64,000 bases of DNA, taken from contig CAYWVO010000006.1 of assembly GCA_964461835.1 (NCBI GenBank), positions 13,998-77,997 on the forward strand, read 5' to 3'. Made by a program: the position numbers and the translations under genes. The notes under the pieces were generated by a model that worked only from the letters and a program-made list of their open reading frames with translations, searched no databases and was not told the DNA's origin. Source of the DNA: an uncultured Ignavibacteria bacterium (GTDB taxonomy: Bacteria; Zixibacteria; MSB-5A5; WJJR01; JAJRUJ01). Below are positions 2,323-48,663 of the stretch, in pieces (within the stretch, counting starts at the first letter, position 1; each line of letters begins with the position of its first letter).

Positions 2323-2945
2323 TCCTGGCCGGGACGTTCAGTTATTTTTTGCGGTATTCACGGATTGAGCCTGACCGCGAACCGGATTTTGCCGAGATCC
2401 CCTACCGGCTCGGTGAATGGGTCGGGGAGGAACGCCGCTTTGAGGATTACGCCTACGAAGTGCTCGCGGCCGATACCACGACCTACCGCCTCTATCGGGA
2501 TACCACGGGACGGGAGATGTCGTTGTTCATCGCATATTTCTCCTCCCAGGAATACGGCGGCCAGATTCACTCACCCCGTCATTGTTTGCCCGGTGGCGGC
2601 TGGGCAATTCAGTCTCGCGAACCGCAGACGCTAGCGGTTCCCGGAGAGAACAATTACACAATCAACCGGATGAGGATTGCGCTGGGTGAGCATGCAGAAT
2701 ACATGTGGTATTGGTTTATGACGCGGGGCGGGGTCAATTCGTCCGAGTACGGTCTCAAGTGGGACCTGGTCATCAATTCGCTGCAACTGAAACCGACCGA
2801 CGCCGTGTTCATCCGGTTTAACACGCTGACTGAGGCAACGCCGGCCGAGGCCGAACGTTTGGGCGAAGCATTCGCGTTGGAATTGATCAAGCATCTTGAC
2901 CGCGCGCTGCCATTCGCCAATCGGAGTACGCCCCGTGATGGGTAA
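2274..2945 (+). CDS. EpsI family protein, an exosortase-associated periplasmic protein
   Basis: N-terminal TM/signal segment. Has the characteristic HSPRHCLPGGGW motif of the EpsI family. Lies immediately downstream of, and overlapping, the exosortase gene. Confidence 0.8.
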   Translation: MATPKKTAFVAVCVLVVLAGTFSYFLRYSRIEPDREPDFAEIPYRLGEWVGEERRFEDYAYEVLAADTTTYRLYRDTTGREMSLFIAYFSSQEYGGQIHSPRHCLPGGGWAIQSREPQTLAVPGENNYTINRMRIALGEHAEYMWYWFMTRGGVNSSEYGLKWDLVINSLQLKPTDAVFIRFNTLTEATPAEAERLGEAFALELIKHLDRALPFANRSTPRDG

Positions 2946-3810
2946 AGACCTGCTCACCGCCATTCGTCCCGCCCAGTGGGTAAAAAATAGTGTCGTGTTC
3001 GCGGCCGTCATCTTTGCGCGCGAATATCAGGATACCGAGAAACTCCTGCTGGCGAGTATCGCATTTGCGTGTTTCTGTTTGATTTCCTCCAGCGTTTATT
3101 TACTCAACGATGTGATCGATGCGCCCCGCGACGCCAAGCATCCCGTTAAGAAAAACCGGCCGATTGCCTCCGGCAGAGTTCCGCCGGGGCTGGCGTTGGG
3201 GGTGGCGATTGTGTTTGCCGCCGGTGGATTTATCACCGGCTATGTCCTGTTGCCGGACGTGTTTCTGTTGACGCTGCTGGGGTATGTTGTGTTGAATATC
3301 GGATATTCACTGAAACTTAAGCACGTGGTTATTCTGGATGTGATGTCGATTGCCGCGGGCTTTGTGTTGCGTGCGGTGGCGGGAGGATTGGCGGTGTCGG
3401 TGCCGATTTCCTCGTGGTTGCTCATCTGCACGACCTTGCTGGCGCTGTTTCTGGGGTTCGGCAAACGGCGGCATGAACTGGTGTTGCTGGGCAATCAAGC
3501 CGACGGACACCGGAATATCCTGACTGAGTACTCTCCGTACTTTTTGGATCAAATGATTGGTGTCGTGACGGCATCCACCGTGGTTGCCTACTGCTTTTAC
3601 ACCCTTTCTCCGGAGGTCCAGGAAAAATTAGGGTCGGACAAGTTGGTATTGACGGTACCGTTTGTACTCTACGGTGTTTTCCGCTACCTGTACTTGATTC
3701 ATCAAAGGCAGGTAGGCGGGAATCCGACCCGCGTAATGCTGACCGACCTGCCGATTCTGATCACCGTGGTGCTTTGGCTGATTTGTGTGTTGATTATTTT
3801 GGGTGCGTAA
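2938..3810 (+). CDS. UbiA-family prenyltransferase, decaprenyl-phosphate phosphoribosyltransferase-like
   Basis: Has the NDxxDxxxD motif (LLNDVIDAPRDAKH) and multiple TM helices. The MGKDLL start sits inside the longer ORF called at 2896. Confidence 0.8.
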   Translation: MGKDLLTAIRPAQWVKNSVVFAAVIFAREYQDTEKLLLASIAFACFCLISSSVYLLNDVIDAPRDAKHPVKKNRPIASGRVPPGLALGVAIVFAAGGFITGYVLLPDVFLLTLLGYVVLNIGYSLKLKHVVILDVMSIAAGFVLRAVAGGLAVSVPISSWLLICTTLLALFLGFGKRRHELVLLGNQADGHRNILTEYSPYFLDQMIGVVTASTVVAYCFYTLSPEVQEKLGSDKLVLTVPFVLYGVFRYLYLIHQRQVGGNPTRVMLTDLPILITVVLWLICVLIILGA

Positions 3811-3893
3811 TCAACTGGCCCTATCTGCACGAAAGTGCCCCAGGGTTTCCAGGAAACGATTGCATTCAGCGAAATTATCGTGCTCGTCATTGT

Positions 3894-3918
3894 GTGCGCG
3901 GCAGGTCTCCAACCTGCC
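3894..3918 (+). repeat. Family-A hairpin repeat, copy A1 (GTGCGCGGCAGG-loop-CCTGCC)
   Basis: gtgcgcggcaggtctccaacctgcc. Related copies are listed below. Confidence 0.8.
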
Positions 3919-3950
3919 GGCTCGACGGAAAGAAACAGAATCATCCTCTT

Positions 3951-3975
3951 GTGCGCGGCAGGTCTTTAACCTGCC
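3951..3975 (+). repeat. Family-A hairpin repeat, copy A2
   Basis: gtgcgcggcaggtctttaacctgcc, a tandem neighbour of A1. Confidence 0.8.
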
Positions 3976-4080
3976 CGTCTCATGGAATTAGCGGCATCAT
4001 CCCATAGTGCCACCCGCTTCCGATCCCCACGACAAGCATAAATTACCGACGTTTCGAGAATGACAGAACGGGATAGAACG

Positions 4081-4105
4081 GGCAGACGAGACGTCTGCCG
4101 CGCAC
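4081..4105 (-). repeat. Family-A hairpin repeat, copy A3 in inverted orientation
   Basis: ggcagacgagacgtctgccgcgcac. The stem sequence differs from A1/A2 but still pairs. Confidence 0.75.
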
Positions 4106-4299
4106 AAAACCTACCCTCCCGAGGCTGGGCCGGCGACGCTCATTGGCAGATGGCCCACCACGAAAGGAATTATGCAGCAATTCTCGTAATGGTGGGGGTA
4201 GAAAGATTATAGCTACAGGACAGCAGCTGCTATCCCATCACTCCCGGATTTCATCCCTGAAATCCTTCCGTGGTGGGCCGCCCATCATTAGGTAAACAA

Positions 4300-4536
4300 T
4301 CAGCCTTTGGTCGAGCCCGGCGGGAGCAATTGCTGGAGTGCATCAGGAAGTTTACCGGGGAAATCTCGGTTGGCGACACCCCGGGCCTTGCGATAGGAAT
4401 CATCATTGACCGCCACCGGTTGCGCCGAACCGGTGTGCCGGGCGATGATCCGCTCGACTTTGCCTTTGTCATTATCCCGCAGTGCGTCAGCGAGTTCCTG
4501 GAATACTGGGCCGGTCAGCGGGCCAGGTGGATGCAT
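4300..4536 (-). CDS. Hypothetical small protein of 78 aa
   Basis: An AAGGAGGG Shine-Dalgarno sits 4 nt upstream of the ATG. The ORF is embedded in a repeat-rich intergenic region. No recognisable domain. Confidence 0.3.
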   Translation of the reverse strand: MHPPGPLTGPVFQELADALRDNDKGKVERIIARHTGSAQPVAVNDDSYRKARGVANRDFPGKLPDALQQLLPPGSTKG

Positions 4537-4667
4537 AAACCCTCCTTAGGTTCGGTTTCGTTCTGATTGAGTCTACGTGTTGCTGCTACGGGGTGCAAGC
4601 GGAAAAGGCGGGGGGTCAATCACGAATGAAACACGCTCGAACACAAAAGCTGGCACACAGGCTGGCG

Positions 4668-4716
4668 TGGCCCTGATCTGAGGGTGAGCGGCTGCGAACC
4701 CGGAGATCAGGGTTTC
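4668..4716 (+). repeat. Family-E-like hairpin repeat, copy E3 (GGCCCTGATCT…AGATCAGGGTTTCC)
   Basis: An 8-bp inverted repeat with a 24-nt loop. Shares the GGCCCTGA / TCAGGGTTTC arms with E1 and E2. Confidence 0.6.
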
Positions 4717-4762
4717 CAGGAGCGACCGGATTTGGCACCAGAGGGCATCGCACCTAGAAACC

Positions 4763-4792
4763 CTGACGAACGTCAGGCCCACCCTCCCCCAA
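4763..4792 (-). repeat. Family-E hairpin repeat, copy E1 (revcomp of GGGTGGCCCTGACGTTCGTCAGGGTTTCT)
   Basis: Matches 58412-58443 in the opposite orientation. Has an 8-bp stem CCCTGACG / CGTCAGGG. Confidence 0.75.
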
Positions 4793-4830
4793 AATGGATC
4801 CCGGCTCAAGGCCGGGATGACACGTCGGGG
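4785..4830 (-). repeat. Family-C hairpin repeat, copy C1 (TGTCATCCCGGC-CTTGA-GCCGGGATCCATTTTGGGG)
   Basis: ccccaaaatggatcccggctcaaggccgggatgacacg. Lies downstream of the minus-strand qmoC-like gene. Confidence 0.85.
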
Positions 4831-4853
4831 TGAGTCGGTCTAATTGCCGCAGA

Positions 4854-4888
4854 ACGGGCAGACGTGCAGCCTGCCGGGCACAATTCGC
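4854..4888 (-). repeat. Family-A hairpin repeat, copy A4, degenerate
   Basis: The revcomp reads TGTGCCCGGCAGGCTGCACGTCTGCCCGTTC. Confidence 0.55.
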
Positions 4889-4906
4889 TATATACCAAAA
4901 CAACCC

Positions 4907-4945
4907 CAAACCAAGTCCCGCCAGGGCGGGAAAGTTTGGGGTTGC
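4907..4945 (+). repeat. Family-B repeat, copy B1 (hairpin CCCGCC-AGGG-CGGG followed by GGTTGCCACCC)
   Basis: caagtcccgccagggcgggaaagtttggggttgccaccc. Confidence 0.7.
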
Positions 4946-5006
4946 CACCCATGTTCCATAAAAAAGCCGGTGCACGAGGACGTACCCCGGCCACAGATCT
5001 CATTGT

Positions 5007-5039
5007 CCGGGCAGGCTAAAGGCCTGCCGCGCACACATC
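5007..5039 (-). repeat. Family-A hairpin repeat, copy A5, abutting the stop codon of the qmoC-like gene
   Basis: The revcomp reads ggatgtgtgcgcggcaggcctttagcctgcccgg. Confidence 0.8.
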
Positions 5040-6218
5040 CTACGCCGTGCGCATCTCCCGACCAACCTGCTTGGCGTGGACAATCGCCAGCGTGCGGTAA
5101 ATCATATGCGCAAACTTCGAGTAGGGCATATACCACAACAGGAAAAACACGAACACCAAATGCGCGAAATAGTTGGCATAGGCGACCATCGGCAGCCCGG
5201 TGTACCGCAATAGCCAGGAAAGCATCCCGGTCAGACCCGTTAAGAACATTATGTAGATAAACAAGTAATCGGCGTAGCCGTTGGCGCCGACTTCATCCTT
5301 GTTCTGCCAGCGACGGACGATCAACCAGGTGCTGCCCACCAGCAGGGCAATTCCGCTGAGCGCACCCAGGATTTTCACCGGGTGCGGCGGTTCGATTGGT
5401 ACCTGGAAAAACGAATCCAGCGTTTCAATCCCGAACCAGGTGTGGAGATAATGCGGCAAGAATACGAACAAGAGCACCAAGCCGGTGGTGATCATCGCTC
5501 CGATAAACCCAAAAAACAAAATCATGTGGGCCTTGGCGCGGGGTTTGTTGGTTGTGCATTTGTTGAACTTGGTGTGGGTGAAAATCTCCTTCATCGTCGC
5601 CACAAATGCGGGCACAAACCCCATATTTACCTGCCCGACATCCCGATTGAGCGCGTCCCAGAACCTCTTGAACGCAACCGCAGCGAAGATGAAGATCAGG
5701 ACGTTGCCGAATACAAAGAGTGCATCCACCGTGCTGTGCGGCATAAAAATATTGTAATCGATCGCCGCCTCCGTCATGAACAGATACTCCCCGTCCACCT
5801 GGGGCGCTGAGAGAACGATACTCCCCAAAATGATCAGAATCGGTACCAAAAAGAGCACCGGCAGCGCTTTCGGCGTGGCCAGCGCCTTCCCCATGAATTT
5901 AGGGAACGAATAGTTTTCATAGATATAGGTGCGGATCGCTGCAAGCACATCCCCCGGCCGCGCGCCCCGCGGGCAGTAGGTCGTGCAATCATTGCATTGA
6001 TGGCACAGCCAGACATCCGGGTCGGCGATCAGGCGGTCTTTCTGACCCCAGCCGGCCCAGAGCATCTCTTTGCGCGGGAACGGCCTGTCCTCCGGTGAGA
6101 GATTGCAGACGACCGAGCAGGTCGCACACTGGTAGCATTTTTTCAGTGTCTCGCCCCCATTGCGGCGGACACTGCGAATAAATTCTACATCGGGTTGAAT
6201 CGTTTGGACTTCCGCCAT
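5040..6218 (-). CDS. qmoC: Membrane-bound FeS/heme-b oxidoreductase, QmoC-like. It fuses an HdrC-like 2x[4Fe-4S] ferredoxin domain to an HdrE/NarI-like transmembrane domain.
   Basis: Has two CxxCxxCxxxCP motifs (CYQCATCSVVC…P and CHQCNDCTTYCP). These are followed by roughly 6 TM helices containing conserved His. Length 392 aa. A GAGGAGAG RBS precedes the start. The gene is divergent from sat-aprBA. Confidence 0.65.
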   Translation of the reverse strand: MAEVQTIQPDVEFIRSVRRNGGETLKKCYQCATCSVVCNLSPEDRPFPRKEMLWAGWGQKDRLIADPDVWLCHQCNDCTTYCPRGARPGDVLAAIRTYIYENYSFPKFMGKALATPKALPVLFLVPILIILGSIVLSAPQVDGEYLFMTEAAIDYNIFMPHSTVDALFVFGNVLIFIFAAVAFKRFWDALNRDVGQVNMGFVPAFVATMKEIFTHTKFNKCTTNKPRAKAHMILFFGFIGAMITTGLVLLFVFLPHYLHTWFGIETLDSFFQVPIEPPHPVKILGALSGIALLVGSTWLIVRRWQNKDEVGANGYADYLFIYIMFLTGLTGMLSWLLRYTGLPMVAYANYFAHLVFVFFLLWYMPYSKFAHMIYRTLAIVHAKQVGREMRTA

Positions 6219-6901
6219 TGGTCTCTCCTCGTTGTGTCCCGAAGACCAGTCGCTGTGTCGGTGGTGCCGTTTCGTCGTGCGTATTCTTCCCCGCCGACCT
6301 CTAGTAAAATTATAGACCGGAGCAGGAGTTCAGTCAACGATGATGTTAACAATTTCACAAATACCCCTCAATCATTGTCAACTCTCACGCCGTTATTGAT
6401 ACGGTTTTCAGCCCCCCCGTTTCTCACTTAACAAGATTACAACGGTGTACAGGAATGGAAATTGCTTAGTTATTCGCCGCGCAAATGTGAACCAGTTACT
6501 CATTGCCAAACAACGAGATATGCGTGCACATGAATTAAGCGGGCCCCTTGAGTGTGTTCCAAGAATGAGTTCGCTGTTAGATCAATGAATACCGTTCTCA
6601 ATAATAATTCATAACGTTATATTCAGCAGCAAGTTATAGTTAATGACCATTAAACGGATTGGGAAGACACTATCATTATGGCAAAACATGATGTTTTTGA
6701 CGAATAACTCTGACAATTCCTTGGGAAACATGACTATAATTAACTAAATTTCGGAACAAAAAAGGTCGAGTTTCAGTACAGAAAACAGGCATGAATCATG
6801 GGATTACCTAATCGCAAAAAGTGAGGATGTGGGGCCGGAATCAGTCGAGATAATAATTCCGGAATTTGTGAATATAATAACATGTTTTTGACATCTGCGC
6901 C

Positions 6902-6931
6902 TTGACACTACCCGCGCCGTTTCGTAGGTAT
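6902..6931 (+). promoter_or_regulatory. Putative sigma70-type promoter for sat-aprBA: TTGACA, a 17-bp spacer, then TAGGTAT
   Basis: TTGACActacccgcgccgtttcgTAGGTAT lies about 140 nt upstream of the sat ATG. A second TTGACA sits 14 nt further upstream. The region is AT-rich. Confidence 0.3.
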
Positions 6932-7070
6932 TTGCGGGCAGTTAAGGCAGTCGGGCTCAGGAAAGGAACCGGGCACTTCTAACAGCAAACAATCAGGATC
7001 GGGCACGATTGCAAGACGGATTACGACAAGAAATCATGGTGTTATCATTTAATCCCTCAAGGGAGTAGCA

Positions 7071-8297
7071 ATGCCAGCCTCAACACTCATCAGCCCCCAC
7101 GGGGCGGAAGAACTAAAGATTCTCCTGCTGGACGGGCAGGAACGCGACGCAGAATTGAAGCGCGCGGAAGGACTCCCCAAACTGGTGATGTCCTCGCGGG
7201 AAACCGGTGACCTCATTATGATGGGGATCGGCGGATTTACGCCGCTTGACGGTTTCATGGGTAAGGACGACTGGAAAGGTGTCTGCGCCGACATGAAAAT
7301 GGCCAACGGAACGTTTTGGCCGATTCCGATCACTCTCTCCCATGACGAAAAGGTCGACCCCGGGACGGAATTTTGCCTGGTCTCCGGTGAGACCAACGAA
7401 ATCATGGGCACGATGAAGGTGACCGACTGCTACGAGATCGACAAGGAATTCGAATGCAAAAATGTCTTCACCACTACCGACAGCGAACACCCGGGGGTGA
7501 AGATGGTGATGTCCCAGAAGAAATATAACTTGGGCGGACCGGTGAAAGTGGTTTCGGAAAGTTACTTCCCGAAAGAATTTCCGGATCTGTATCAACGTCC
7601 AGCCGAAAGCCGCAAGACCTTCGAGGAACGCGGCTGGAAGACAATTGCCGCGCTGCAATTGCGTAACCCGATGCACCGTTCGCATGAGTATCTGGCCAAG
7701 ATCGCGTTGGAAGTTTCTGACGGCATTTACATCCACCAGCTCGTGGGGAAATTGAAACCCGGTGATATTCCGGCGGAAGTCCGGGTCAAGTGCATTAACA
7801 CACTTGTGGAAAACTACTTTGTCAAAGAGCGGGTGCTCACCGGCGGGTACCCGCTGGATATGCGTTACGCCGGCCCGCGGGAAGGTCTTCTGCACGCCGT
7901 GTTCCGCCAGAACTTCGGCTGCTCCCACATGATCATCGGTCGCGATCATGCCGGGGTGGGCGATTACTATGGCCCGTTCGATGCCCAGAATATTTTCCAG
8001 GAGCTCTGGGATGGCGCCCTGCAATGCCAGATCCTGCCGATCGACTGGACTTTCTATTGCCACAAGTGCGACGGTATGGCCTCGATGAAGACCTGCCCGC
8101 ATGGCAAAGAAGATCGGTTGTTCCTCTCTGGTACGGCATTGCGCAAGGCACTCTCGGAAGGCGGCGAGGTACCGGACGAGTTCAGTCGGAAGGAAGTCCT
8201 GGCAATCCTGCGCGATTATTACGCGGGGCTCAAGGACGAGGACAGAGTTGAAGTCAAAATGCATAAGGCCGCCACGGGCGATTCGGGGAAAAAGTAA
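7071..8297 (+). CDS. sat: Sulfate adenylyltransferase (ATP sulfurylase)
   Basis: Has the [11 protein letters not shown] and GRDHAGVG motifs. Length 408 aa. An AGGGAG RBS precedes the start. Confidence 0.95.
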
Positions 8298-8328
8298 ATG
8301 AGGATATCAACATAAATGGAGGTAACGC

Positions 8329-8763
8329 ATGCCTAGCTTTGTGATTCCGGACAAATGTGACGGCTGTAAGGCGCTCGATAAAACCGCCTGTCAGTACATT
8401 TGCCCGAATGATCTGATGGTCCTGAATAAGGACATCATGAAGGCGTACAACTGGGAACCCGAGATGTGCTGGGAATGTTACAACTGCGTGAAGATTTGCC
8501 CGACCCAGGCCATTGAAGTTCGCGGGTATGCCGACTTTGTGCCGATGGGCGCAGCAGTCACCCCGATGCGGAGTTCCGACTCGATCATGTGGACGGTGAA
8601 GTTCCGCAACGGCACGTTGAAACGCTTCAAATTCCCAATCCGCACCACTCCGGAAGGCGCCGCAGTACCGGACGGCGGATATGGGGCCGGGACCGACGAT
8701 CTCGACAGCCCGCATCTGTTCACCGAACCGGCATCGGTCGAAACCGATTTCCAGGAGAAGTAG
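8329..8763 (+). CDS. aprB: Adenylylsulfate (APS) reductase beta subunit
   Basis: Has the N-terminal 2x[4Fe-4S] pattern CDGCK…CQYICP…CWECYNCVKICP and the characteristic C-terminal tail. Length 144 aa. Confidence 0.95.
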   Translation: MPSFVIPDKCDGCKALDKTACQYICPNDLMVLNKDIMKAYNWEPEMCWECYNCVKICPTQAIEVRGYADFVPMGAAVTPMRSSDSIMWTVKFRNGTLKRFKFPIRTTPEGAAVPDGGYGAGTDDLDSPHLFTEPASVETDFQEK

Positions 8764-8777
8764 GAGGTTGAACGAAC

Positions 8778-10661
8778 ATGGCGAATTTCGAAACTGTGGA
8801 AGTCTCAACCGACCTGCTGATTGTCGGTGGAGGCATGGCGGCCTGCGGTGCGGCGGTGGAAGCTGCGCACTGGGCCAAAAAGAACGACCTGAAGGTCGCG
8901 CTCGTCGACAAGGCGGCGATGGACCGTTCCGGTGCGGTCGCGATGGGTCTCTCGGCGATCAACCAGTACGTTGACCTGAAGTCCGGTAACAACACAGTCA
9001 AGGATTATGTGGATTATGTCCGCAACGACTTGATGGGTATCACCAGGGAAGACCTCGTGGCCAATATCGCCCGGCACGTCGATTCGACGGTGCACCTCTT
9101 TGAAAAATGGGGTCTGCCGATCTGGAAGGACGAGCAGGGCAATTATGTGCACGAAGGTCGCTGGCAGCTGATGATCAACGGCGAATCCTACAAAGTCGTC
9201 GTGGCGGAAGCGGCCAAGAACGCGCTTGGCACCGACAATATTTACGAGCGTGTCTTCATTGTCGGCCCGATCATGTGTGGTGACAAGTGCGGTGGCGCGG
9301 TCGGATTCTCGGTGCGCGAAAACAAGTTCTACGTCTTCAAGTCTCGGGCTACGCTGGTTGCCCTCGGCGGCGCGGTGCACGTATTCAAGCCGCGGTCGGC
9401 TGGTGAAGGTCTGGGGCGCGCCTGGTATCCGCCGTGGAACTCGGGTTCCTCGGCTTACTTCACCTTGAAGGCCGGCGCTGAGATGACCTGTCAGGAAGTC
9501 CGGTTTATCCCGGTCCGCTTTAAGGACGCGTACGGTCCGGTTGGGGCCTGGTTCCTCTTGTTTAAGTCCCGCGCGACCAATGCCAAGGGTGAAGCCTACA
9601 TGGAGACCCGCCGCCCCGAACTCGAAAACTGGGCGCCGTACGGGAAGGTGAAACCGATTCCGGCAAACCTGCGTAACTGGCTGGGTATGCTGGATATCAT
9701 GGAAGGTCTCGGCCCGATCTACATGCGGACCGAGGAAGCGATTAAGAAGATCGCCGACGAATCGCCCGACGAAAAGGCCTACAAGAAGAAAATGAAAGAA
9801 CTTGAGGCCGAGGCGTGGGAAGACTTCCTGGATATGACCATCTCCCAGGCGATTCTCTGGGCGGCTACCAACACCGCTCCGGAAGAGAAACCGTCCGAAA
9901 TCGCCGCCGCGGAACCGTACTTCATCGGCTCCCACTCCGGCGCCTCGGGTGCGTGGGTCTCTGGTCCGGAAGACTTGCAGAACGACAAGACCAAGAGCGA
10001 CTACTTCTGGGGTTACGTGAACATGGCTACCGTGCCGGGGATCTTCTGCGCGGGTGACGCCTCCGGCGCCTCCAGCCACAAGTTCTCCTCCGGTTCGCAC
10101 GCCGAAGGTCGTATCGCAGCAAAGGGCGCGATTCAGTACCTCGTGAAAGAAAATCCGTCCCTGACTTACGACGATGCGGCGATCGAGAAGATGAAAGAAG
10201 AAATCCTGAAGCCGCTCGACCTGTTTGAACAGCACAAGGCCAGCTCCAGTGATCCGGACATCAATCCGAATTACATGAAGCCGAAGATGTTCATGTTCCG
10301 CCTGCAGAAGATTATGGACGAATACGCGGGCGGCGTGACGGCGCAGTTCACCACCAGCCAGTCCAACCTGGAAAAGGCGCTGGAACTGCTCGCGTTCCTG
10401 AAAGAAGACTCCGAGCATCTCGCAGCGTCCGACCTGCACGAACTGATGCGCTGCTGGGAAAATGTTCACCGGATGTGGCAGGCCGAAGCGCACGTGCGCA
10501 CGATTATGTTCCGCGAGGAGACTCGCTGGCCGGGCTACTACTTCCGCTCTGACACCCCGAAGATCAATGAAGACTGGAGAGTCTTCGTCAACTGCAAAGT
10601 AGATCCGAGTTCCGGTGAGTGGGAAATGATCAAGCGCCCGATTCACACCATTTATGAATAA
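8778..10661 (+). CDS. aprA: Adenylylsulfate (APS) reductase alpha subunit, a flavoprotein
   Basis: Has the FAD-binding N-terminus LIVGGGMAACGAA. Length 627 aa. An AGGAGG RBS precedes the start. Lies immediately after aprB. Confidence 0.95.
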   Translation: MANFETVEVSTDLLIVGGGMAACGAAVEAAHWAKKNDLKVALVDKAAMDRSGAVAMGLSAINQYVDLKSGNNTVKDYVDYVRNDLMGITREDLVANIARHVDSTVHLFEKWGLPIWKDEQGNYVHEGRWQLMINGESYKVVVAEAAKNALGTDNIYERVFIVGPIMCGDKCGGAVGFSVRENKFYVFKSRATLVALGGAVHVFKPRSAGEGLGRAWYPPWNSGSSAYFTLKAGAEMTCQEVRFIPVRFKDAYGPVGAWFLLFKSRATNAKGEAYMETRRPELENWAPYGKVKPIPANLRNWLGMLDIMEGLGPIYMRTEEAIKKIADESPDEKAYKKKMKELEAEAWEDFLDMTISQAILWAATNTAPEEKPSEIAAAEPYFIGSHSGASGAWVSGPEDLQNDKTKSDYFWGYVNMATVPGIFCAGDASGASSHKFSSGSHAEGRIAAKGAIQYLVKENPSLTYDDAAIEKMKEEILKPLDLFEQHKASSSDPDINPNYMKPKMFMFRLQKIMDEYAGGVTAQFTTSQSNLEKALELLAFLKEDSEHLAASDLHELMRCWENVHRMWQAEAHVRTIMFREETRWPGYYFRSDTPKINEDWRVFVNCKVDPSSGEWEMIKRPIHTIYE

Positions 10662-15059: not shown

Positions 15060-15078
15060 ACACTGCAATTTAATTTGG

Positions 15079-15135
15079 AGGGTGGCAACCCCAAATGAAG
15101 CCGCCTCCGGCGGACCAAGTTTCGGTTGCAACCCG
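15079..15135 (-). repeat. Family-B repeat, copy B2 in inverted orientation (GGTTGCAACC…GTCCGCCGGAGGCGG…GGGTTGCCACCC)
   Basis: gggtggcaaccccaaatgaagccgcctccggcggaccaagtttcggttgcaacccg. Confidence 0.75.
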
Positions 15136-15212
15136 ATATCATCTACTGTGTCATAGAATACGATTTGCCTTTTACAGCTGATCGTTCCTGCCCCCTTGCT
15201 GCGCAAGGGTAA

Positions 15213-15248
15213 TGGGATCCCGGCTCAAGGCCGGGATGACACGTGGGG
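15213..15248 (-). repeat. Family-C hairpin repeat, copy C2
   Basis: gggatcccggctcaaggccgggatgacacgtgggg. Confidence 0.85.
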
Positions 15249-15342
15249 TAGCGGTACTAATTCTGCAGGATGGGCAGACCAGGAGAGGCAGTCACACAAA
15301 CCGCTTGTAAGGTAGTTCGGGTTCCGAAGAACGCAGAGCATT

Positions 15343-15426
15343 ACGAGAAACCCGACATTTGTAATCCGTTGTGGTAGTGTCGGGTTTCTCCGCGCGCTGA
15401 CGCGCACCTCGGAACGCCGACCTACT
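15343..15426 (+). repeat. Family-D repeat, copy D1 (TGTCGGGTTTCTCCGCGCGCTGACGCGCACCTCGGAAC). It includes a 13-bp inverted repeat GAGAAACCCGACA / TGTCGGGTTTCTC.
   Basis: A second copy lies at 21872-21923, with substitutions in the CGCGCG…CGCAC region. Confidence 0.75.
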
Positions 15427-15537
15427 GCAAATTCGACCCCATGACATTTGTCAACAGGCCCATCTGTCCGGGCCACGCTCGGTCTGCTAGCTCAGAGGTA
15501 AAGCCGGATCATACTGTTGCAATACGACATCAACCCC

Positions 15538-15583
15538 AAACTCGTTCCGCCGCAGGCGGACTAAATTTGAGGTTGCCACCCGC
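15538..15583 (+). repeat. Family-B repeat, copy B3
   Basis: gttccgccgcaggcggactaaatttgaggttgccaccc. Confidence 0.7.
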
Positions 15584-15599
15584 TGCTTGTGGCGGAACG

Positions 15600-15628
15600 G
15601 GCAGGTTCAAGACCTGCCGCGCACAAAA
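15600..15628 (-). repeat. Family-A hairpin repeat, copy A6, abutting the stop of the minus-strand lipoprotein gene
   Basis: ggcaggttcaagacctgccgcgcacaaaa. Confidence 0.8.
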
Positions 15629-16510
15629 TCACGGGCACTCGACGTCATTCTGGCTTTCATCCCAGCAGCGCCAGTTGTTGTCCCCGTAGAAATGCGGGTC
15701 CCTGATTCGACCATCTCCATCAATATGGTGCCACTCAATCTCGACCAGGTTCGCATTCGGCACGTTGTACAAGTTGTAGAACCGGTCGTATTCGTTGTCA
15801 GTGGTCGAGCCGTAGGAGATATAGCCGCCGTTGTTTGGGTTTTCCGGGATAACGTTGGTGTATTTCAAAGTCCCGGTATCGGCGGCGTCATCGTAGGTCC
15901 ATTCAATCGCCAAAAACGGCCTGGGGTCGGTTGGGGAGTGGTTCAAGTTCCAACTACCGGCTGATCGGTCCAGCTGACTGATACCGGTATACCATTCAAA
16001 ATCGGTGTACTCACTCTCCTTACTGATGGTCATGATCCAGAATACCTGATCACCGTCCACCCGACCATTCAACACTGCGCTGTGCTCCACGCCACCGGCG
16101 GTGAAGCTATACGCCCAGTTCCAGGAATTATCCTCCGGCTGCCACACCGGGTCCTGGCCGAATGCCGCTACAAACGAGGCAGCGGGGACGATCAGCGCCA
16201 GATTGAGGAGTGCATCCCAGATCCCGATCTGAAAAGCGGCACGAAACCAATAATCCTTGGTCTCTGATTGAGTTCTTTTGCCAAATAGCGGGCTAACCCC
16301 GTCGCCCCGATCGAAATCGTCAAAGTTCATGACGAATGACGATTGCGGCGGCAGGGGCGGTGCCTCTTCCGCTGGGCCGGTGGGATCATCGTCACTGCAC
16401 CCAACAAACAGCAGGGAAAACGCCATAAATGAGGCGAGGATCCCCAACCAACGATGCCGTCGCATATTTCTCATCTGGTTTCTCCTCTCAATGTATTGAT
16501 CCGTCTGCAT
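15629..16510 (-). CDS. Hypothetical secreted lipoprotein
   Basis: Has a signal peptide with the lipobox LLFVGCSDD. No recognisable domain. The true start is probably an internal Met (MRNMRRHRW…). Confidence 0.5.
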   Translation of the reverse strand: MQTDQYIERRNQMRNMRRHRWLGILASFMAFSLLFVGCSDDDPTGPAEEAPPLPPQSSFVMNFDDFDRGDGVSPLFGKRTQSETKDYWFRAAFQIGIWDALLNLALIVPAASFVAAFGQDPVWQPEDNSWNWAYSFTAGGVEHSAVLNGRVDGDQVFWIMTISKESEYTDFEWYTGISQLDRSAGSWNLNHSPTDPRPFLAIEWTYDDAADTGTLKYTNVIPENPNNGGYISYGSTTDNEYDRFYNLYNVPNANLVEIEWHHIDGDGRIRDPHFYGDNNWRCWDESQNDVECP

Positions 16511-19006: not shown

Positions 19007-21826
19007 GTGTCTTACATGGTCACGAAGCTACGGTTCTCTATCGCGGTATTTTTTGCACTGATGGTAACTGGTGTTTGTCTCATATCGGCATCCGCACAAC
19101 ATTTGCCGGTCCAATACCACGGTGATTACGACATGGAATTTTTCTCCGCAGGAAAGTACTTACAGGATATTCCCACTCCGGAATCGATATTGGGATACAA
19201 AGTCGGCAGCCGCCCGGCCACCCACGCCGAGATTCGGTCCTACTTTCGTGCGCTCGCTGAAGCCAGCGACCGGGTGATTCTTCGCTCGCACGGAGTAACT
19301 TACGAGGGCCGTGAGTTGATTCATGCAATCATCACTGCACCTGCCAATCACACGGAATTGCGTCAAATAAAATCACGTAACCAGAAACTCGCCGATCCGT
19401 CCCTGGCCGCCCCGAATGAGGCGTCACGGATCACCCAGAGCAATCCGGTTGTTTTCTGGGCCGGGTATAATATTCACGGGGATGAACTTTCCGGTGCAGA
19501 CGCGGCCATGCAGGTGGCTTATCAACTGGCGGCGGGTACCGACACCATGACCCTGGCGATTCTGGATGATGTCGTGGCGATTATCGATCCGATGGAAAAT
19601 CCGGACGGCCGCGATCGCTTTCTGGCGATGATGCAAGTTTTGAATACCGCGGTTCCGACACCCGATGCACAGAGTTTACAACATCGGGGAGTCTGGCCCT
19701 ACGGCCGCAGTAACCATTACTGGTTCGATTTGAATCGCGACTGGTATGCACTCGTGCACCCCGAAACCCAGGGGCGGGTGGAGACCATTATCGACTGGAA
19801 CCCGCAGGTGATTGTTGACGCGCACGAAATGGGAGTCCACAGTAGCTTCTTGTTCTCGCCTCCGCGCGCGCCGTACCACCCGACCGTCACCGAAAACCGC
19901 AAGAAATGGTGGGACATTTTCGCGCGTGATCAGGGAGCGGCATTCGACGAGTATGGGTGGCGCTATTACTCGGGTGATTGGAACGAGGAATGGTTTCCCG
20001 GCTTTACCACCTCCTGGGGCGGATTGACCGGCGCCGTGGGGATTCTCTACGAACAGGCGCGGGTTGAAGGTAAGCTCTCGAAGCAACCGGATAAATATAC
20101 CCTGACCTACGGTGAAACAGTCCATCACCAGTTCGTCAGTTCAATTGCCAACCTGCGGACCGCCGCGTTTCATCGCGAACGACTGCTGCGCGACTTTCAT
20201 GCCGATAAGCTAGCTGCAACAAGGGCCCGACCGGGGGCATATCTGATCATCCCGGGCGACAATCCCGGCATCGTGAATACCCTGATTCGCACGATGCAAA
20301 CGCAGGGTATTCAGGTTATGCAAGCGAAACATTCTTTTGCAGCAACCGGGCGAAACTACTGGAACGCGTCCGAGACCAGCCGGCGGTTTCCCGAGAAAAC
20401 CATCGTGGTCACGAAGAACCAACCGATGGGGAACCTGGTGGAAACGATCCTCTCCTTCGATCATCGCCTGTCGGACAGCATTCTCGCCGAAGAGCGCAAA
20501 TCAATATTGCGTGGTGAGGGCGGCACGATGTATGAGATCACCGCCTGGTGTCCGTTGATGGGCTATGGGCTGACGGCGTACGATTTCGAGGGGAATCTAA
20601 GCGTGGCGCTCGAAGCCGCCGAACCAATCGATATCCCGGCGGGACGGCTGATCGGCGAGGATGCTTCCCAAGGCTATGCCATGCGTACGCTGGCCGATCA
20701 TGAAATTCGGGCATTGGTCGAGTTATTCCGCGAGGAGATTAACCTGCGGGCGGCGCGGAAACCGTTTTCTCTTGGCGATCAAAAGTTCCCTGCGGGGAGC
20801 GTTGTCATTTCACGCAAAGGCAACCCCGACAATCTCAATGATATTTTAAGGCCAATCGCCGAAACGACCGGGGCGAATTTTTATGCCGTACCCACGGGCC
20901 AGGCTACAACGGGCTACGATCTCGGCAGCGGAAAATACGACCTGCTCGCGCGTCCCCGGATCGCCATGGTTGCCACCAGCCCGGCGAGCTATACTACTGC
21001 CGGCGCCATCTGGCACATGCTGGACCAACGGTTGCAGATTGAACATTCGCTGCTGGATGCAACTCGTCTCGGGGATCTATCAAAGTACAATGTGCTTATT
21101 CTGCCGAGCAGTTGGCGTGGCCCCGGCGGATACCTCAGGACGTTTGGGGAAGGTGACATCAAGACCATCAAAGATTGGGTAGCGGACGGTGGTACGTTAA
21201 TTGCCACCGGCAGCGCGGCGGCATTCTGCGCCGACACCAGTGTGGGACTGTCACAGGTTCGGCAACGGCGTCAAGCGCTTAATATGTTGGACTCCTTCGA
21301 AAAAGCAGTGGCCGACGAGAAAGAGGCCAAATCTCCCATGGTTTCTGACATGGTGCTATGGAAGCGCCCGCCGGGGACTCGCCAATCGGAATCAGCTGCT
21401 CCATCGCCACCAGTCAATATGCAGGAACTCGCAGAGGAGGACAGCGACGCGCGACGGTTCCGACCGCACGGGACAATCGTGCGGGTGGATCTGGACACCG
21501 AGGAATGGCTGACCTTTGGTATGGAAGACAAAGTTCCGGCACTGATGAGTTCATCTTATGCCTTACTCTCGAAGCCACCAGTGCGCACCGTGGGACGATA
21601 TGGCGCTGAGCAAACAATTCGTCTGTCCGGTCTGCTCTGGCCGGAAGCTCGGGAACGGTGGGCGGAGACTGCATATCTCACCCGTGAATCTCGCGGCAAG
21701 GGACAAGTGATTTTGATTGCGGAACGGCCGGTTTTTCGCGGCTATTTTCACGGCACCGAACGGTTATTGATCAACGCTATTCTCTTTGGACCGGGATTGG
21801 GATCACGCGAGGCGCTGCCCTGGTAA
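19007..21826 (+). CDS. Secreted M14-family zinc carboxypeptidase with a large C-terminal extension
   Basis: Has a signal peptide and the M14 Zn-binding HGDE motif (NIHGDELSG), with the downstream His (DAHEMG) also present. Length 939 aa. Confidence 0.85.
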   Translation: MSYMVTKLRFSIAVFFALMVTGVCLISASAQHLPVQYHGDYDMEFFSAGKYLQDIPTPESILGYKVGSRPATHAEIRSYFRALAEASDRVILRSHGVTYEGRELIHAIITAPANHTELRQIKSRNQKLADPSLAAPNEASRITQSNPVVFWAGYNIHGDELSGADAAMQVAYQLAAGTDTMTLAILDDVVAIIDPMENPDGRDRFLAMMQVLNTAVPTPDAQSLQHRGVWPYGRSNHYWFDLNRDWYALVHPETQGRVETIIDWNPQVIVDAHEMGVHSSFLFSPPRAPYHPTVTENRKKWWDIFARDQGAAFDEYGWRYYSGDWNEEWFPGFTTSWGGLTGAVGILYEQARVEGKLSKQPDKYTLTYGETVHHQFVSSIANLRTAAFHRERLLRDFHADKLAATRARPGAYLIIPGDNPGIVNTLIRTMQTQGIQVMQAKHSFAATGRNYWNASETSRRFPEKTIVVTKNQPMGNLVETILSFDHRLSDSILAEERKSILRGEGGTMYEITAWCPLMGYGLTAYDFEGNLSVALEAAEPIDIPAGRLIGEDASQGYAMRTLADHEIRALVELFREEINLRAARKPFSLGDQKFPAGSVVISRKGNPDNLNDILRPIAETTGANFYAVPTGQATTGYDLGSGKYDLLARPRIAMVATSPASYTTAGAIWHMLDQRLQIEHSLLDATRLGDLSKYNVLILPSSWRGPGGYLRTFGEGDIKTIKDWVADGGTLIATGSAAAFCADTSVGLSQVRQRRQALNMLDSFEKAVADEKEAKSPMVSDMVLWKRPPGTRQSESAAPSPPVNMQELAEEDSDARRFRPHGTIVRVDLDTEEWLTFGMEDKVPALMSSSYALLSKPPVRTVGRYGAEQTIRLSGLLWPEARERWAETAYLTRESRGKGQVILIAERPVFRGYFHGTERLLINAILFGPGLGSREALPW

Positions 21827-21871
21827 CGAGTCGGTATAACGGCTCTTGGCGCACAGGGAGCAGCCGTACCG

Positions 21872-21923
21872 GGTAGGATGATGTCGGGTTTCTCCGCGCG
21901 TTGACACGCACGTCGGAACCCGG
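21872..21923 (+). repeat. Family-D repeat, copy D2
   Basis: atgtcgggtttctccgcgcgttgacacgcacgtcggaacccggcctaca. Confidence 0.75.
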
Positions 21924-22083
21924 CCTACATCACAAGCTTGCGGGACGGTGTCGAGACGCCTGCCGCGCATAAAATAGACCGGGTCGTGGTGTAAGTCGGC
22001 ACGCTTTTTTATCCTTACCAAACGGGATATATTTTGCTATATCTTTTTTGGGCGGGGTAACGGTCGGAGCGGAGCCTAATAGT

Positions 22084-46024: not shown

Positions 46025-46259
46025 ACCAACTCCTGTTGCCGGATACGGCGTTGTATTAGTGTCTTCGGCTGCTTGGCAAGCCAGTTGAGTCAGAGGCTAA
46101 TGGGAAAGACCATAACCGGCCGCATTTAGGTCAGTTGGATTGCCACTTGGGACCTTTTTTACACCGTACCCTTACCGACCCACCCGACGCTTTGCGTGCA
46201 TCACGCCCGCTTTGCTCTGGGTGGGGTACCCAAATCCTCTACGCTGTTAGGCTTGTTCT

Positions 46260-46283
46260 CACAGCTTTGAGGTTGCCACCCGA
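46260..46283 (+). repeat. Family-B partial copy B6 (GAGGTTGCCACCC)
   Basis: ctttgaggttgccacccgaacagg. Confidence 0.5.
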
Positions 46284-48359: not shown

Positions 48360-48663
48360 CGTATCCTCCCCGAAGTTTCCGGCATGATTGTCACCCGGCA
48401 ATGAGACTATTTCAATATCCTGAACGCGCAAGATACCGAATTCGAACCGGAAATTCCAATGCCGGGAGCAGTTGGGTGACAATACTTAGGAAGAGTGTTG
48501 AAAAAAAGCGGTAATGTCAGATTTGTGGTAGGTCGGTGTTCCGAGTCCGGGCCGCCGTGGCGGACCAAACGAGAAACCCGAAACCAACCCAACGATTTAC
48601 AAATGTCGGGTTTTTCGGTATGCTGCGCATTCCTCGGAACCCGACCTATGAAAGGCTGGTATC

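Follow-up and report, generated by a model that had tools for sequence, protein, structure and literature searches.

The tract at positions 3811-5039 of a 64-kb stretch of DNA from a Zixibacteria-like metagenome-assembled genome (MAG; the whole stretch is referred to as the window) is crowded with short GC-rich hairpin repeats, and it raises the question of what class of element these repeats belong to and how they came to form a mosaic. The tract is flanked by a UbiA-family gene (2896-3810, plus strand) and a gene for a qmoC-like iron-sulfur membrane protein (5040-6218, minus strand), both assigned with Pfam; as the two genes are convergent, it lies 3′ of both. The analyses described below lead us to conclude, with a probability of about 78%, that the tract is a cluster of repetitive extragenic palindrome (REP)-type elements of several families, arranged like the bacterial interspersed mosaic elements (BIMEs) of Escherichia coli, and that one of these families, family A, is a REP of the type linked to REP-associated tyrosine transposases (RAYTs). 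With hairpin families of the REP/BIME kind and RAYT genes in related genomes, the tract adds a further case to an established class, from a phylum that has received little study.

The hairpin repeats are far above chance and confined to non-coding DNA

Shuffled sequences were used as controls for the number of repeat copies. The 12-mer head of family A, allowing at most one mismatch (<=1), has nine matches in the window against 0.52 expected, and none of 100 shuffles reached nine. The head of family B has nine matches (1.5 expected) and the head/arm of family D has two (0.08 expected). When the 7.5 kb of putative non-coding DNA was used as query against the whole 64-kb window in a blastn-short search, all 36 non-self matches lay in the 11.7% of the window that was treated as non-coding, and coding sequence had no match. 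In addition, the hairpins fold well below their shuffled controls, most units having z-scores between about -2.4 and -4.4. Together these results show that the repeats are real.

Direct reading and a repeat finder recovered the nine units that a preliminary description had named in the tract, A1, A2, A3, an E-like unit, E1, C1, A4, B1 and A5. Recurrence of the same families was likewise found at 15060-15630, 21870-21975, 31380-32030, 46260, 58210-58680 and 62490-62610. The preliminary description had counted at least seven other regions; it listed these six, and our analysis adds a site that it had missed, at 48528-48647. Its example of families combining differently from place to place, C then E at 58335-58443 and E then C at 4763-4830, does not hold: when the minus strand of 4745-4895 is aligned with 58268-58455, both read A, C, TTTTG and a GGGTGG-headed E, so that the same A-C-E order is present on opposite strands. 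The two arrangements thus represent an inversion of one composite and provide no evidence for free recombination of modules.

A-type hairpins flank RAYT genes in related genomes

The consensus of family A is GTGCGCGGCAG-N9-CTGCCCG, which forms a bulged hairpin; the five A units of the tract read GTGCGCGGCAGG, followed by seven bases and CCTGCC(C)G. The hairpin has 10 bp and one bulged C, and its fold z-score is about -3 to -4. Nine clear and about four degenerate copies are present in the 64 kb, all of them non-coding. The window copies have the head GTGC and those of a sister subtype in related contigs have GTGG; the fourth base of the head appears to be paired with the tail.

When 47 copies of family A, taken from the window and from related contigs, are aligned, 97.2% of the cells can pair, and this value falls to 33-42% when the partners are slid by one to three columns. 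Compensatory changes are found in six of the ten pairs, including the basal pair (C:G in 38 copies, G:C in eight). The head and the basal stem are constant, and the three distal stem pairs covary (ACG/CGT, GCA/TGC, GTA/TAC, ATT/AAT and others).

The preliminary description had taken the tract for a BIME-like cluster of small mobile hairpins and had named a RAYT/IS200-type TnpA as the suspected enzyme. In agreement with this, screening all fetched DNA with E. coli RayT (E 2e-7) led to a 173-amino-acid open reading frame (ORF) on contig L228 that matches the NCBIfam equivalog REP_Tyr_transpos (REP-associated tyrosine transposase) with 100.6 bits, at a cut-off of 80, and also Pfam Y1_Tnp. On this contig an A-type REP is followed by the ORF and then by three tandem, inverted A-type REPs. 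Inverted A-like hairpins also flank each RAYT gene on four further contigs (L247, L249, L251 and L259), bringing to five the related contigs with this arrangement. The L228 RAYT has about 100 homologues at 43-72% identity, to which the RAYTs of these four contigs belong and several of which are labelled Zixibacteria by NCBI.

The window itself was searched with a profile built from 98 RAYT proteins, and nothing was found at E<=1. The earlier statement that the window holds no transposase is therefore upheld for the Y1/RAYT class, which is the class that this search covers.

Family A was also sought in a genome collection with the pattern GTGCGCGGCAG-N9-CTGCC (16 fixed bases). This pattern proved too loose: the 119 matches were mostly lone chance matches in GC-rich genomes, and about 10, from MAGs that carry the label Zixibacteria or Ignavibacteriales, were genuine, complete A hairpins. 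A tighter scan of metagenomes gave 120 matches, about 30 of which were genuine A hairpins.

Several further observations were made on these contigs. The three tandem REPs of L228 (600-745) are 53-nt units, each with an A-type REP of the GTGGGC subtype, located between the RAYT gene and a putative tRNA gene called by eye on the minus strand at about 828-900. In two RAYT clades the RAYT gene adjoins a gene for a class II aminoacyl-tRNA synthetase (Pfam tRNA-synt_2; L247 7659-10528, L254 1207-3684, L256 1095-3590); this adjacency may reflect conserved synteny, as would be expected if RAYTs were present in single copy and inherited vertically. A distant RAYT clade, at 28-38% identity to the L228 protein, is represented by L254 (flanks at 990-1200 and 1790-1860) and L257 (2827-2981 and 3570-3681). 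The idea that CGTC-type repeats flank this clade was rejected, as the arrays in the flanks consist of another REP, of the GTGGCGTCGGATGTTACCATCCGACGC type, whose head is GTGG or GTGC.

Among the pattern matches, those at L025 7481-7511, L028 2210-2240, L035 7044-7074 and L110 6452-6482 lie on both strands of longer palindromes ending in ...CTGCCGCGCAC. Their hosts are unrelated GC-rich genomes (Streptacidiphilus, Azorhizobium, Thiobacillus, Nitrospira), and the palindromes may be unrelated repeats. Metagenome contigs L160, L177, L222 and L227 share a near-identical 47-nt stretch around the match, with one base differing (GAGATTGGATGTGCGCGGCAGCGTGAAATGCTGCCCGTCTCTTGCCG); this stretch is probably a different conserved element or a gene segment.

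The other families and the coupling of A to C

CGTC-tagged REPs have been defined by a terminal CGTC (with TGTC and CCTC variants), a stem of 8-9 bp whose first pairs are A-T, a loop of 4-5 nt and a short tail, CCA (PMC3733652). They are reported to occur mainly as head-to-head dimers, an arrangement that is typical without being defining, and have no known transposase link (Di Nocera et al. 2013, PMC3733652). The six family C copies of the window have the head TGTC (five) or CGTC (one), the tail CCA (five) or CCC (one) and, in all six, an 8-bp stem starting with A and a loop of 4-5 nt; the second stem position is C instead of T in three of them. At the level of sequence, family C thus displays each of the features by which CGTC-tagged REPs are recognised. 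Head-to-head dimers were not found. Instead, all six copies are singletons placed head-to-tail, in the same orientation, 13-85 nt 3′ of an A copy, with a recognisable spacer common to three of them.

Contig L040, which comes from another MAG, likewise has A followed by C at two places. The region 3160-3810 of that contig is a mosaic of its own: besides A and C, it contains a long hairpin with the head GTAGGTCGGG (3672-3725) and a hairpin family, GTCATTGCGAG...GCAATC, that is present in several copies. The constant order, the partly conserved spacer and the recurrence in L040 indicate that A, spacer and C act together as one unit, about 100 nt long. This fixed coupling is the only feature of the system that might be new. 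A further step would be to regard A-spacer-C as one mobile composite, in which the CGTC REP would be carried along, or processed, with a RAYT-type REP of the same strand, the two being comparable to the left-end and right-end hairpins of an IS200/IS605 mini-element. We consider this step conceivable yet doubtful. No A-C composite flanking a RAYT gene was found. If the composite does move in this way, it would provide the first transposase link for CGTC REPs; in any case the constant coupling offers a handle on how these REPs spread, a point left open in PMC3733652.

Family D has arms of the sequence GTAGGTCGGNGTTCCGAG at 15408-15425 (minus strand) and 48528-48545 (plus strand), and a third copy is located at 21872-21935. 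The two arms of a D unit end in the canonical GTAG tag and together form one long hairpin (z -4.4), as expected of a GTAG REP or of a REP doublet forming a hairpin (REPIN). A GGGTGG head beside the stem is common to families B, E and F. A long inverted repeat in the tract (4152-4279) resembles, as far as its sequence goes, a REPIN-type doublet.

Repeat turnover and breaks in same-organism assemblies

Three short-read assemblies of the same organism from the Logan collection (L001, L002 and L122; runs SRR7048218 and SRR7048220) are identical to the window across A5 and B1. Assemblies of this organism end inside C1 (at about 4795 of the window) and inside a D unit (at about 21911); such breaks are the usual sign of multicopy repeats. 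Repeats of this kind that fragment short-read assemblies matter for the quality of MAGs.

A comparison with more distant organisms was possible downstream of the gene for a 939-amino-acid M14 peptidase (19007-21826), whose best named homologues come from Zixibacteria and neighbouring candidate phyla such as KSB1; a protein identical to it is encoded on an NCBI contig of 92.9 kb. In the window this gene is followed by a D and an A unit. Neither was seen downstream of the orthologous gene in any of three relatives (63-66% protein identity), two of which have a CGTC-type REP there, at about 40 nt (L124) and about 300 nt (L125) after the stop codon. This site thus shows repeat turnover. In the ~50 kb examined of these relatives (L123-L125), families A, B, D and E were not found, and CGTC-type units were present in two of them.

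Comparison with known REP systems

Most work on REPIN-RAYT systems concerns Pseudomonas and enterobacteria (PMC5581495). The repeats of the window resemble those of the E. coli RayT (group 2) and Pseudomonas (group 3) systems in being short imperfect palindromes with a conserved 5′ head, which in family A is unpaired over GTG, restricted to non-coding DNA and present as singlets, inverted doublets and clusters, and in that a Y1/HUH transposase gene is flanked by inverted copies, here in related genomes. They differ in their Zixibacteria-like host, in having a GTGC or GTGG head followed by a bulged stem, and in that one head and basal stem are kept across RAYTs that are only 43-72% identical. 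Two points are of significance: the range of well-evidenced REP/RAYT systems that cluster like BIMEs now includes an uncultured lineage, Zixibacteria and its relatives, and one head and basal stem stay constant over this range of RAYT divergence. A full-text literature search joining Zixibacteria with repetitive extragenic elements returned no paper.

The likeness to E. coli BIMEs consists in REPs of more than one subtype placed between genes in alternating orientation, although the alternation in the tract is partial (A2/A3, and the E-like unit with E1). There is no sequence relation to BIMEs, the mixture here comprises a larger number of families (A, B, C, D, E and F) and no evidence for defined linker motifs was obtained. 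The absence of E. coli REP sequences and linkers from the tract limits the likeness to organisation. Pairs of Y and Z REPs are a feature of E. coli BIMEs, and back-to-back inverted heterodimers of the A subtypes GTGCGC...CG and GTGGGC...CC, observed at L223 4241-4304 and L232 5940-6002, resemble such pairs.

Family C resembles the CGTC-tagged REPs in head, stem, loop and tail, and also in its occurrence in mixed clusters: CGTC-1/dRS3 units of Neisseria are found in mosaic intergenic regions together with other repeats (PMC3733652). It differs from them in its singleton copies behind a RAYT-type REP. In view of these Neisseria regions and of E. coli BIMEs, in which REP families are likewise clustered and mixed, the preliminary description went too far in calling the organisation of the tract unusual. 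Composites of a degenerate GTAG REP and an unrelated stem-loop have been described in P. putida and P. fluorescens, with ‘hundreds of these bizarre structures’ (PMC3733652). As there, a RAYT-type REP appears to be joined to a different stem-loop and propagated with it as one unit; the partner in the window is a CGTC-type REP, and a composite of that kind is not mentioned in PMC3733652.

Proposed mechanism and alternative explanations

A mechanism can be proposed by analogy with E. coli RayT and IS200/IS605 TnpA, on which PMC3733652 and PMC5581495 give summaries. A HUH/Y1 transposase, present as one gene copy outside the window, would bind the folded A hairpin on single-stranded DNA, cut beside the conserved head and re-join the ends, so that copies spread into non-coding DNA without target-site duplications; repeated insertion beside earlier copies would produce the mosaic. 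Families D (GTAG) and B/E/F (GGGTGG) are additional families of the REP or REPIN-like type, on which the same RAYT or its paralogues would probably act, and family C, a CGTC-tagged REP, would travel as the 3′ half of the A-spacer-C composite. Where copies lie in 3′ untranslated regions, as A5 does, the RNA hairpins that they form would probably protect transcripts or punctuate them. The analyses above show the repeats, their folds and covariation, their restriction to non-coding DNA, the turnover at an orthologous site and the linkage of RAYT to REP in related genomes, whereas transposition in the source genome and effects at the RNA level are inferred.

Several points weigh against a RAYT-type REP cluster. 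The GTGC head of the window's family A is, on sequence, close to the canonical GT[AG]G without being identical to it. The 47-copy alignment was in part selected by the search pattern, and its unbiased part consists of the distal stem and of copies outside that pattern. The source genome's own RAYT was not located (P0161, P0216, P0172 and P0138 were looked up and all come from other samples), and the link between RAYT and REP therefore rests on related genomes. Between the window and L001/L002 no presence/absence polymorphism was found. CGTC REPs have no known transposase (PMC3733652), which makes the mechanism given for family C a guess. Finally, the repeat-rich 1.08-kb spacer at 31175-32256, packed with B, F, A and C units, lies between divergent genes for a PEP-CTERM protein (minus strand) and a DUF1028 protein (plus strand), an atypical location for REPs.

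Part of the evidence could also be accounted for if the hairpins were mainly selected by the host, as 3′-untranslated stabilisers, terminators or protein-binding sites, and were copied by recombination or gene conversion with no transposase involved. The conserved, covarying structure of family A would agree with this, as would the positions of A5 and of the A unit at 15597, which begin 5-6 nt after stop codons (A5 being enclosed between the stop codon and a terminator-like hairpin), and the fact that most A copies of the window lie head-first in the transcript of the upstream gene. This last bias was, however, not reproduced when related contigs were included (in total 11 copies in sense and 10 in antisense orientation, the gene calls being crude), and head-first orientation relative to the upstream gene was rejected as a general feature. 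Moreover, many copies are located beyond a terminator-like hairpin or between divergent genes, and RAYT genes flanked by A-type hairpins in five contigs would be unexpected for purely host-derived elements. We regard an origin by host selection as unlikely; host use of the hairpins would also be compatible with transposition, as a secondary use of transposed copies.

It is considerably less probable that the units are miniature inverted-repeat transposable elements (MITEs), that is, deletion derivatives of DDE-type insertion sequences that move via terminal inverted repeats and duplicate their target sites. A MITE-like size and long inverted repeats are indeed seen in the D units (about 110 nt) and in the element at 4152-4279, and assemblies break at D units. 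Against this, inspection by eye revealed no target-site duplications at the ends of the three D copies, which fits mobilisation of the Y1 type rather than the DDE type, and the D ends GTAG/CTAC correspond to the REP tag. The hallmark combination of terminal inverted repeats with a target-site duplication was not found at these three copies; units of families A, C and E each consist of one small hairpin of only 27-33 nt, and family A is tied to a Y1 transposase, not to a DDE enzyme. Least credible of all is that GC-rich palindromes were over-read or that the repeats are an artefact of binning and assembly. The source is indeed a MAG, and some units recognised by eye are weak (F, the hairpin at 3985-4015 and the degenerate A copies). 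Chance similarity is nevertheless excluded, and for families A-E this explanation is refuted, by the shuffle controls, by the matches being confined to non-coding DNA and by the presence of the same families in further genomes and in metagenomes; the sequence is also identical between assemblies made independently from two sequencing runs.

Layout of the tract and of the other repeat sites

The positions of the units in the tract and elsewhere in the window are given in Table 1.

Table 1. Repeat units and other features of the tract 3811-5039, followed by the further repeat sites of the window (strand., none assigned)
Feature	Position	Strand	Remarks
A1, family A REP	3891-3923	+	head GTGCGCG, hairpin GGCAGGT/ACCTGCC; repeat finder, fold, head count
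A2, family A REP	3948-3980	+	repeat finder, fold, head count
A3, family A REP	4078-4110	-	~100 nt from A2, tail-to-tail; inverted-repeat match, fold
Long inverted repeat, 128 nt	4152-4279	.	20-nt arms GGCCCACCACGAAAGGAATT / AAATCCTTCCGTGGTGGGCC, 90% complementary; inner hairpin; z -2.7
Probable gene of 78 amino acids; not a repeat	4300-4536	-	strong ribosome-binding site, AAGGAGGG, 6 nt upstream of ATG
E-like unit	4667-4721	+	GTGG head, enlarged loop, GTGGCCCTGATC...GATCAGGGTTTC; tail-to-tail with E1
E1	4757-4784	-	GGGTGG-headed hairpin, minus-strand GGGTGGGCCTGACGTTCGTCAGGGTTTC; 96.6% over 29 nt to 58415-58443
C1, CGTC-type REP	4795-4822	-	TGTC, ATCCCGGC, cttga, GCCGGGAT, CCA
A4, family A REP	4855-4887	-	head GTGCCCG; 5′ member of minus-strand A-C-E composite
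B1, double hairpin	4901-4950	-	head GGGTGGCAACC; z -4.1
GC-rich hairpin followed by UUUUUU	4961-4993	-	likely intrinsic terminator of the qmoC-like gene; outside the repeat families
A5, family A REP	5006-5037	-	begins ~6 nt past the qmoC-like stop codon, ahead of the terminator-like hairpin
Degenerate A to C composite, second copy	15214-15305	-	spacer like that at 4795-4887
D, GTAG-headed long hairpin, REPIN-like	15313-15425	.	arm GTAGGTCGGCGTTCCGAG; z -4.4
A (15597-15628), then B (15533-15581)	15533-15628	-	A abuts stop codon of gene 15629-16510
D-type unit (21872-21935) and family A REP (21944-21975, -)	21872-21975	.	3′ of the M14 peptidase gene
B 31429-31480; F 31503-31550 and 31575-31630; B 31645-31700	cluster 31429-31793	+	
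Degenerate A 31716-31755; C 31766-31793	same cluster, 31429-31793	+	
F hairpin 46176-46230; B fragment 46263-46281 (-)	46176-46281	.	
D, GTAG-headed long hairpin	48528-48647	.	site absent from the preliminary description
A-C-E composite	58278-58445	+	A at 58278, C 58336-58363, E 58415-58445
A-to-C composite	58483-58567	+	C: CGTC head, stem ATTCCGGC
A-to-C composite, variant A	62493-62602	+	C: TGTC, ACCCCAGC, gcag, GCTGGGGT, CCA

That the tract is a repeat mosaic is borne out by this layout; that it is purely intergenic is not, since it also contains a probable gene and a terminator-like hairpin. The minus-strand ORF at 4300-4536 has a 74-amino-acid homologue (43% identity, E 5.8e-12) in a search of 1.8 billion representative proteins, and also matches single repeat units of long repeat proteins (600-2000 amino acids). 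Neither this ORF nor the other small ORFs of the tract have a Pfam match. The ORF is, as judged from its sequence, a probable gene within the repeat tract.

The hairpin and UUUUUU run at 4961-4993 were seen in the RNA fold; a simple terminator scan did not list them. The order in the qmoC transcript, being stop codon, A5, GC-rich hairpin and UUUUUU, places A5 in the 3′ untranslated region and the remaining units of the tract beyond the likely terminator. The repeat units match none of the known RNA families represented by Rfam covariance models: the only hit above threshold in the window was one tRNA, and 3700-5150 gave merely sub-threshold matches at chance level.

The 850-nt spacer at 6219-7070, between the qmoC-like gene and its divergent neighbour, had no repeat matches in the blastn-short search. 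The qmoC-like gene forms part of a sulfur-metabolism cluster (5040-10661), in which it is divergent from genes for ATP sulfurylase (7071-8297) and an APS (adenosine 5′-phosphosulfate) reductase beta-like protein (8329-8763) and an ORF of 627 amino acids (8778-10661); the family assignments in this cluster were taken from the same-species contig L001.

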